IMG/VR virus record: IMGVR_UViG_2526164633_000032
Coordinates: 1 to 39,549 of that record
DNA: 39,549 nucleotides
Origin: a virus
Taxonomy: Duplodnaviria > Heunggongvirae > Uroviricota > Caudoviricetes
Direction: 5' to 3' (one strand)
Shown here: positions 36,801 to 39,549 of the stretch, piece by piece
How the letters are laid out: each line of letters begins with the position of its first letter
How positions within the stretch are numbered: position 1 is the first letter of the stretch
Position numbers: made by a program

Positions 36801-39549
36801 CAATACAACTGAAGGTAGCGCCCGGTACTCAGACTGTGCCGTCCATGGAATATTTGAAAAGGGATCCATCCGTACCGGGCGTGTGATGATTCTGACTGAA
36901 GTCACTTGTCAGTTGTCAATCATTTATCATTAAAAATAATATATTTATTAGTGCATGATGTTTGCCATCTCATAGGCGTCAGCCAGTAACTCCATCTCTG
37001 ACTTGTTCAGCAAGGTGAATTCTTTCTTGCCTCCAACCACACCATCGGCATGAACAGGGACCAGCCATGGGTATTTTTCTCTTACTTCAGCCGGAGCTGC
37101 ATGCTGGTGGTGCCATCTACAAAGTGGCAATTGCTTTTTATGACAACCCGGCGCGGTACGACCGGCGATATGGTGCAGAGACACCTCATTAGATATTACT
37201 CCATGCATATAGCAGGCAATGCAGGGGAGAGCGCCAAGAGCATTGGCGACGCGCCGTTCCTCCGCCGTTGGTGTTCTCCCCTTCAAGCCACGAGATTTTA
37301 TTTTTACCACGCTTTTCCGCGTTTTGCTGGCTGGTGGGCGCTCTTTCTGTTTAGCGATACGGCGGTCGAGAGTATCCCGCATTTTCTGATATTGAGATTC
37401 TCGCCAGACCGGATCAGCCAACTTCTCCCGTTGCCGAGCGATCGCCCGTTCTCTGGCTGCCTTCTGCCACTTGCGGCACTGTTCAATTTTTTGTTCGATT
37501 GTTTTCATATGGCAAAAAAAAGGCGGCCTAATGGCCGCCAATGATGTCAAGGAGTGAAGTAATGGCAACGTCTTCGTAGTTGACAAAAACTGCGGCTCAA
37601 TTATAGCAATCAATTAGAGCAATGATAGATATTTTGTTTATCGCGAATCACATTTTTTCACTTCAGTACCTGTGTGCTATACTCCTTCTTGATTGATTGG
37701 ATGCGGAATACAAACCCGCTCTTTTGTGCAGCCTGGCTCCTTGCCAGGCTTTTTTATTTCATCATGGAAGCTGTTAATGCTTTGGACCTTGCTGAACTGA
37801 TTGAGAGGGCTTTGTCAACGTGCCCCAAAAATTCGCCAAACTCAGACATCACTTTAGCAAAACCGCGCCGTGCTTCTTCCTCGGTGGCGTTCATCACGAA
37901 ATGTTCAGCACCACGCATACTTTTGACAGGGAACGCAACGGATATTGAGTCAATATCAGGCATTCTATCGCTCAGCTTTACAGTGACAATGACGGCTGGC
38001 GACTGAATATTAGTGCTTACAGACAGCACTACATATTTTCCGTCGATGTTGAAATCCTTTCTCATATGTCACCATAAATATCAATGAATTAGAGCAATCA
38101 TTTACGCGTTAATGGCTAATCGCCATCTTCCAGCAGGCGCACCATTGCCCCTGTTTCACTATCCAGGTTACGGATATAGTTCATGACAATATTTACGTTG
38201 GTCCAGCCACCAGCTTGCATGATCTCCGGTATTGAAACTCCGGCGCGGGCCATATCTCGCGCGGCTCCGACACGGGCACTGTGTCCAGACCAGGCCAGGT
38301 ATCTCTGACCAGAGTCATCCTTAGCGCCGTAAATCAATCGATGAGTTGCTTCAAAAATCCCTTCCAGGGCGCGAGTTGATAGCTGGCTGGTGGCAGATGG
38401 CGCAGCTACGCCATTTTTTCTGACACGGCAAAACAAGTAGTTATTCGGATCATCAGCCACACCAGAGACAGAAATCCATCGCTCGACCAGTTTAGTTACC
38501 CCCAGGCTAAGTGCCTTCTCTACACCCGCGGTACTAACCAGCGTTTTCGTTCTGCCAATATGGATTAACATTCTCCCACCGTCTGTACGTGAGATATCTT
38601 TAACCCTGATCCTGGCAATTTCGGCTATACGTAACAGGGTGTTATAAGCGATCCCCAGAAATGCCAGATTACGTATATCCTGGCAGCGATCGCTATTTTC
38701 CATGAGTGAACGAACCTGGTCGAAATCAGTGCGTTCGAACGCCAATGCCTGTTTTGCACGTTCACCGGCATCAACGTTTTCTTTTCGAATCCGCCGCATG
38801 ACCAGTGAAACAGCATTGCTGTCACTTGGTCGTGGCAGCCCGGACCGACGATGAAGCATGTTTAGCTGGCCCAAATGTTGCTGGATAGTTTTTACTGCCA
38901 GACCGCGCGCCTGAAGATATAGAAGATAATCGCGAACATCTTCAGGTTCTGCGGGAAACCATTTCCGGTTATTCAACTTGCACCATGCCGCCCACGACCG
39001 GCAAACGGACAGAAGCATTTTCCAGGTATGCTCAGAAAACGCCTGGCGATCCCTGAACATGTCCATCAGGTTCTTGCGAACCTCATCACTCGTTGCATCG
39101 ACCGGTAATGCAGGCAAATTTTGGTGTACGGTCAGTAAATTGGACATTTAACACTCAGATAATGGTTTTAAGTAAAGTGTACAGGATCGGCTCTGCCTTT
39201 ACCTGTTTATGGTTCTCGTCATAGAAACGCCAGCGACCGCGCGTGCGTTCTATTTTCTCTTCACCGCGCGATAATGACAGTTGACAACTATCACGATCAA
39301 ACCCTTTTGCCCGCCAGTAACCACGGTTTTTCTCAAGCTCAATATGAGTGGACACTTTAGCAGCTGAATATCCCATTTTTCACCTCTGATTGATTGGTGG
39401 TGCTAAGTGCGCTACGCGAAATCTGGAGCACTAACACTGCCAACTTTTCACAGATTTTACGTAGCGCAAACTTGATCAAATGATCAAGTGATCACTATTT
39501 GACCTGATAAGGTATTGAACTGTATGGATTTACAGGTAAATTGATCATG

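Follow-up and report, generated by a model that had tools for sequence, protein, structure and literature searches.

A probable leader terminator (attenuator) of the ref nuclease gene in a P1-like phage

The window analysed here is the whole 39,549-nucleotide (nt) stretch of IMG/VR virus record IMGVR_UViG_2526164633_000032, which belongs to a P1-like phage and whose cre-c8-ref stretch is 98.3% identical to phage P1. The element under study is a short hairpin with a U tract, located on the minus strand between a C1-controlled promoter and the start codon of ref, that very probably acts as the leader terminator (attenuator) of this gene. The ref product matched the Pfam family PF16786 (RecA_dep_nuc; E 4e-51, 171.8 bits against a cutoff of 26.9) and the solved Ref structure PDB 3PLW (E 2e-124 across residues 1-186) and is 98.9% identical to P1 Ref; as judged from these matches, it is a RecA-dependent HNH nuclease of the Ref family. 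Ref harms the host, with lysogenisation lowered 40-fold and ciprofloxacin killing increased (PMC4713147), and how the phage limits Ref matters both for P1 biology and for the use of Ref as a programmable nuclease. Between the window and P1 record AF234172, the 140 nt leading up to the ref ATG are identical. The features of the locus are given below in the order in which they are met on the minus strand, where mat is the next gene after ref.

39147-38116, minus strand: Cre
38065-37754, minus strand: C8
37607..37623, minus strand: C1 repressor operator Oref, ATTGCTCTAATTGATTG (consensus match, P1 annotation, conservation)
37600..37608, minus strand: extended -10 of promoter P2ref, TGcTATAAT (-10 annotated in the P1 record)
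37565..37593, minus strand: predicted 5' leader hairpin of the P2ref transcript (minimum-free-energy folds)
37563..37569, minus strand: candidate antiterminator strand GUUGCCA, upstream of the terminator (able to pair with part of its 5' arm)
37541..37568, minus strand: predicted promoter P1ref, -35 TTGCCA at 37568-37563 and -10 CATCAT at 37546-37541
37549..37555, minus strand: pyrimidine motif ACUCCUU with its CUCC core at 37554-37551 (alignment conservation)
37522..37539, minus strand: terminator stem-loop GGCGGCC-AUUA-GGCCGCC (sequence reading, terminator scan, folding, conservation)
37514..37521, minus strand: U8 tract of the terminator (sequence reading; T7-T10 in relatives, T8 in the JK004 branch described below)
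37506..37513, minus strand: spacer GCCAU (37513-37509) and ref AUG (37508-37506), without a Shine-Dalgarno sequence
36948..37508, minus strand: ref, RecA-dependent HNH nuclease of 186 amino acids (Pfam, PDB and P1 Ref matches)

An earlier note on this DNA had described a GC stem of 7 base pairs (bp) and a U8 tract ending 5 nt before the ref ATG, and both are read directly on the minus strand. The stem consists of seven G-C pairs closed by a loop of 4 nt, and the U8 tract adjoins its 3' side directly. A consensus terminator scan called the hairpin a terminator with 7/7 G-C pairs, the isolated hairpin folded at -15.0 kcal/mol, and RNA folding gave each stem pair a probability of at least 0.99 in the leader ensemble. 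Under a strict site definition (7 Watson-Crick pairs, at least 6 of them G-C, and at least 7 T in 8), four terminator sites were found in the whole 39.5-kb window compared with none in 200 dinucleotide-preserving shuffles. With its G+C-rich stem, short loop, U tract and pairing that is conserved at the RNA level, the element has the make-up of an intrinsic (Rho-independent) terminator. A bidirectional terminator was considered and rejected, as the plus strand has A8 before the hairpin and no T-run after it.

Ref relatives at 80 IMG/VR loci (77-100% identity) provided 49 distinct 140-nt leaders of the P1 lineage; scanning a one-genome-per-species collection with Ref found only close relatives, and an alignment-based scan of viral contigs returned the same P1-type loci again. 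Across the 49 leaders the stem was constant save for 3'-terminal C-to-T changes that leave G-U pairs, the loop read ATTA, ATCA or TAAA, the T-run measured 7-10 residues and the spacer was GCCAT, GACCAT or ACCTT. A second and diverged branch, here called the JK004 branch, comprised Cronobacter phage JK004 (65% Ref identity), a Salmonella plasmid and three IMG/VR contigs. The operator ATTGCTCTAATAnTTAT is followed in these sequences by TGTATAAT, a strongly diverged leader and the hairpin, with the parts in the same order as in P1. The JK004-branch hairpin reads GACGGTC-TTCG-GACCGTC (GGCCGTC in L093) and is succeeded by T8, 10-13 nt and an ATG or GTG preceded by at most a weak GGG.

Stem pairing was counted in the 41 distinct sequences of an alignment of 42 leaders drawn from both branches. 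All 287 stem cells pair (100%); in two of the seven pairs both partners have changed (G-C to A-U, and C-G to U-A via U-G), and slid stem registers pair in just 14-71% of cells. Columns were variable in 5 of 14 cases in the stems, where pairing was always kept, and in 1 of 8 in the U8 tract, with 4/4 variable in the loop, 13/13 in the spacer and 59/62 in the upstream leader. G-U wobbles are tolerated only on the ref-sense RNA; on the opposite strand they would be A-C mismatches. In P1 the operator is preceded by c8, in JK004 by an unrelated open reading frame (ORF; comparison E 9.4), and the module therefore belongs to ref. The D6-like ref genes lie behind a divergent gene and possess an AAGAGG or AAGAGA Shine-Dalgarno sequence; neither the operator-promoter module nor a leader terminator was found at these genes. 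The comparison indicates that selection has retained the terminator in both of these diverged P1-like branches and that it travels with ref; to judge by this conservation, the element is functional.

Upstream of the hairpin, the operator and the extended -10 together occupy the region 92-115 nt before the ref ATG. The Oref 17-mer ATTGCTCTAATTGATTG shows 3 mismatches to the C1 operator consensus, at which level 0.08 chance matches are expected in the window; it is annotated as a monovalent operator in AF234172, and its first 11 bases are invariant in the 42 aligned leaders. The TATAAT that had been noticed upstream of ref was found at 37605-37600, 92-97 nt before the ATG, and is likewise invariant across the leader alignment. 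Of the two operator-like sites proposed alongside it, one stands as Oref, and the other proved to be ATTGCTATAATTG, a 13-nt tandem near-copy of the operator that supplies the -10; a second true C1 operator over the -10 was rejected, since ATTGCTATAATTG fails at 3 or fewer mismatches. Counting 7 nt past the -10 would place the P2ref transcription start near 37593, and the hairpin would thus lie some 55-80 nt downstream of this C1-controlled promoter. The ref 5' region is also bound by H-NS at CGATAAA, which corresponds to 37643-37637 in the window (Ronayne et al. 2016, PMC4713147). P1ref is labelled as predicted in AF234172 and scored 9/12 with TG in a consensus scan; transcription from it would begin near 37534, within the hairpin's 5' arm, giving transcripts without the terminator stem. 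As a conserved feature P1ref was unsupported outside the P1 lineage, with no counterpart in the JK004 branch. AF234172 annotates P2ref, Oref and the predicted P1ref here, yet has no terminator feature in this stretch.

Two P1-like IMG/VR contigs (L025 and L028) were found in which a Tn21-family inverted repeat lies against the ref promoter, taking the place of the left half of Oref. The repeat sits ~100 nt before the ref start, and the extended -10, leader and terminator remain. In these two contigs ref would escape C1 control and yet stay damped by the terminator.

The position of the ref start codon was upheld by three observations. Insertions and deletions between hairpin and ATG in relatives (T7-T10; GCCAT or GACCAT) put all the upstream in-frame TTG codons out of frame, the start codon of the JK004 branch lines up with the ref ATG, and the solved structure 3PLW uses the same 186 residues as the ORF beginning at ATG 37508. 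An N-terminal Ref extension from the upstream TTGs (a 221-residue ORF) was rejected on account of these T-run and spacer changes. The lack of a recognisable Shine-Dalgarno sequence, also claimed in the earlier note, is borne out by a best duplex with the anti-Shine-Dalgarno sequence at -20 to -1 of only -1.5 kcal/mol, near the bottom of the ORFs in the window and compared with -5.8 kcal/mol for ref of phage D6. The messages that read through into ref are without a Shine-Dalgarno sequence, and their translation would therefore also be weak.

A candidate antiterminator was identified between the promoter and the hairpin. The upstream strand GUUGCCA complements the U and first six bases of the terminator 5' arm (UGGCGGC, 37540-37534), and the two are paired in the predicted fold of the nascent P1 leader before the 3' arm exists. 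An equivalent helix, ACUGUCA/UGACGGU, is present in 5/5 JK004-branch leaders, often extended by GAAG with loop CUUC, and ACUGUC is the sole invariant block in the otherwise variable leader of this branch. Where the branches differ in the 5' arm, at two positions, the upstream strand and the 3' arm both carry the matching bases. In the terminated RNA, the modelled 5' leader hairpin would sequester part of the antiterminator strand; this hairpin is loosely conserved, its base altering shape in the L057, L019 and L080 variants. The antiterminator is probably kept by selection in both branches.

Taken together, a terminator lies between promoter and start codon (P2ref -10 at 37605-37600, hairpin at 37539-37522, ATG at 37508), and the promoter-terminator-start order is identical in the JK004 branch. 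The earlier note had offered two functions, an attenuator limiting the endonuclease or a terminator of transcripts arriving from the cre side together with inefficient translation of ref. The former is the better supported, as the hairpin lies downstream of P2ref and the module is intact in the JK004 branch, where the upstream genes are unrelated; it also agrees with the published view. The attenuator may be envisaged to work as follows. In a lysogen, C1 bound to Oref would block P2ref; upon loss of C1, P2ref would fire from about 37593, and after about 55 nt the 7-bp all-G-C hairpin and U8 would stop most transcripts as an RNA of ~80 nt. A minority would read through into ref, probably helped by GUUGCCA pairing with the 5' arm before the 3' arm is made, and the weak internal promoter P1ref may add transcripts starting inside the stem. 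The combined brakes would keep a host-damaging nuclease low even with a strong promoter open. Ref-coding RNA is reported to have risen 73-fold by 30 minutes after C1 was inactivated (Ronayne et al. 2016, PMC4713147). Transcripts from the C1-controlled promoter thus do get past the hairpin, and any termination there is partial. A damper that is fixed and leaky is the simplest model, though a protein might conceivably serve as a sensor.

Several observations weigh against this interpretation. The compensatory changes represent essentially one evolutionary split between the two branches, and the number of double changes depends on a column-by-column alignment of the two hairpin types; in an alternative alignment that matches the CUCCYUGAC blocks, the two hairpins are offset by ~10 nt, with both branches keeping the 7-bp stem, 4-nt loop and U8 under either alignment. 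As for the antiterminator, 2.4-4.9% of shuffled leaders contain a 7-nt complement, which amounts to modest support, and arm pairing equal to or exceeding that observed arises in 3-30% of shuffles. Its helix is weakened in six P1-lineage variants, among which the L075 type shows a terminator that gains an eighth A-U pair, and the antiterminator strands of the two branches are at non-homologous positions. An Rfam search by E-value over 36600-38300 gave no family above its gathering score, only sub-threshold matches at chance level, and the ref leader has no AUG or GUG with a Shine-Dalgarno sequence. With no sensor visible, the attenuation may be a fixed damping rather than a regulated one. Published P1vir RNA-seq did not resolve the ref leader, and the equation of this hairpin with the attenuator named in a 1988 title (see below) relies on that title and on the hairpin being the sole terminator from promoter to ref.

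Among the alternatives, the one that survives best would have the hairpin serve mainly as the terminator of cre-c8, with ref expressed from the internal P1ref by transcripts starting inside the 5' arm. This is consistent with the annotation of P1ref in AF234172, its -10 ending 2 nt before the stem, and with the JK004 branch, where only 1-5 nt separate the end of the upstream gene from the operator, so that the hairpin is the first terminator for that gene too. The T-run of the hairpin that follows c8 lies on the other strand, and a scan of the minus strand from the c8 stop to the ref hairpin gave no other intrinsic terminator; the ref hairpin, as the first one after c8, would therefore also halt cre-c8 read-through. 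The cre-side role proposed earlier thus fits, and is compatible with attenuation rather than an alternative to it. Three results speak against giving it the leading part: the module accompanies ref even where the upstream genes are unrelated, P1ref is without a JK004-branch counterpart, and C1 loss, acting at P2ref upstream of the hairpin, induces ref RNA to the extent noted above. We consider this explanation unlikely, although it deserves more weight than those that follow.

The absence of a Shine-Dalgarno sequence raises a further alternative, namely that the element acts mainly on translation or RNA stability and terminates little, with U8 as a landing pad for ribosomal protein S1 and the hairpin as a 5' stabiliser. 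In favour of this, neither branch has a Shine-Dalgarno sequence, the U tract is always 5-13 nt from the start codon, and the D6-like ref genes that possess a Shine-Dalgarno sequence are without the element. Nevertheless, an all-G-C 7-bp stem with a tetraloop and U8 is a canonical intrinsic terminator, with no feature that would lead polymerase to ignore it, and the upstream complements of the 5' arm would be left unexplained, making this account improbable as a replacement for attenuation. Within the attenuator, ribosomes may in addition use the U8 tract as a U-rich landing site.

A different product of the same promoter was considered in view of a conserved CUCC core, which lies ahead of the hairpin in 42/42 aligned leaders and is predicted to be unpaired in the terminated RNA in 40/42. 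The motif, CUCC(Y)U, is located 9 nt before the terminator in P1, where it reads UUCACUCCUU, and directly before it in JK004, where it reads UUCACCUCCCU (locus L085, about 1152-1161). The terminated leader RNA (~67-82 nt) could be a C1-controlled small RNA whose CUCC(Y)U pairs in trans with Shine-Dalgarno regions of phage or host messages. CUCC is constant as the remaining leader diverges, a plain terminator needs no such motif, and the best sub-threshold Rfam match was the mmgR/suhB small RNA (22.9 against a gathering score of 41 bits), which is not evidence of membership. The likeness to Hfq-type small RNAs is one of shape only, an unpaired conserved CUCC and a U8 terminator. The motif may instead simply belong to a loop poor in G through which the antiterminator hairpin stays open, and its complement looks like a strong Shine-Dalgarno sequence. 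The JK004 motif UCACCUCCCU is close to the 3' end of 16S rRNA, a resemblance that is post hoc. Such a small RNA is accordingly a long shot; if true, the abundant P2ref product would be a leader RNA of ~70-80 nt, a regulatory RNA doubling as the ref attenuator. In a variant of this idea, the leader RNA and a putative opposite-strand transcript at 37690-37758, which bears a conserved terminator, would form a divergent small-RNA pair in the c8-ref spacer.

Lastly, a functionless chance palindrome, for which small size is the sole point in favour, is refuted by the 0/200 shuffles that gave such a site and by the pairing of 100% of stem cells across two sequence types.

The c8-ref spacer from ~37750 to 37640 contains further candidate signals on the plus strand. 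A second strong intrinsic terminator, facing the opposite way, lies at 37730-37750, just past the c8 stop, with a T-run to about 37756, and is preceded by a promoter-like site at 37655-37683 (TTTTCA-17-TGcTATACT). This pair would yield an RNA of ~66 nt (-23.2 kcal/mol, z -2.84) that folds into two hairpins and ends in a U tail. The spacer is almost invariant in 55 distinct P1-lineage sequences, far above the conservation of the ref leader, and the terminator and promoter-like pair (window 37640-37760) is absent from the annotation of the P1 record.

Between the cre stop and the c8 start, a C1-operator-like site (ATTGCTCTAATTCATTG, 38082-38098, minus strand) shows 3 mismatches to the consensus. 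A ATTGCTCTAAT core is found at this site in most relatives, and reference P1 has the -10-like ATTGCTATAAT in its place, with no operator match at 3 or fewer mismatches. Given the operator-like core in most relatives, c8 may therefore be C1-controlled in most P1-like phages.

Downstream of ref, the mat region (36759-36870, minus strand) has a run of four G near 36771 where P1 has five, which puts the annotated P1 mat start (ATG 36869) out of frame with the remaining mat. Among relatives the run is G4 in 36 loci and G5 in 24, and other lengths occur; because of this variation the conserved mat start is probably ATG 36759. A terminator-like hairpin at 36798-36780 with a T-run lies ~20 nt before this ATG, a design as at ref. 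After mat, an ORF on the minus strand (35312-35920) encodes a GNAT acetyltransferase-like protein. P1 has res and mod after mat, and the accessory content here would then differ from that of reference P1.

Elsewhere in the window, a Tn21-family transposon occupies 15434-29029 and is bounded by the inverted repeats GGGGTCGTCTCAGAA..CGGAAAATAAAGCAC:

15434-15465, plus strand: transposon inverted repeat
28998-29029, minus strand: transposon inverted repeat

An ORF for a SNF2/ResIII-helicase-like protein of 1825 amino acids (29033-34510, plus strand) begins right at the transposon repeat and may have been truncated by the insertion.

The ref leader can be compared with several known systems. Riboswitches and protein-controlled leaders follow the terminator/antiterminator logic proposed for ref; they differ in that the ref leader reached the gathering score of no Rfam family, and the would-be aptamer is the most variable part of the leader. 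The trp, his and pyrBI leader-peptide attenuators have a leader terminator, as ref does, and a mutually exclusive upstream antiterminator and a sequestering hairpin of the kind predicted for ref. In contrast to these, the ref leader is without AUG or GUG, without a Shine-Dalgarno sequence and with in-frame UUGs that lose the frame in relatives, and ribosome-coupled sensing is therefore excluded. A further parallel is the Escherichia coli ampC attenuator, which, as reportedly described by Jaurin and Grundstrom, is also the terminator of the frd operon. In ampC and ref alike, a promoter lies just upstream of a terminator that ends the upstream unit and damps the downstream gene; ampC differs in its genes and host context and in an attenuation tied to growth rate, a signal of which kind is neither known nor visible for ref.

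The closest system is the P1 ref regulatory region itself, with the same gene, an identical 140-nt leader and Oref at the corresponding position. Windle, Laufer and Hays (1988) used attenuator-antiterminator wording for P1 ref in their title, and to judge from that title an attenuator in the ref leader is already known, so that the present analysis adds no new principle. The layered brake on ref, made up of the C1 operator, H-NS, the leader terminator and the absence of a Shine-Dalgarno sequence, was recognised decades ago. What is added here is cross-lineage support for the terminator and weaker support for the antiterminator, evidence of the module moving together with ref, and the conservation of an as yet unexplained CUCC(Y)U motif. 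The window and P1 share the promoter overlapped by a C1 operator, the leader terminator and the candidate alternative pairing upstream, and nothing structural differs between them.

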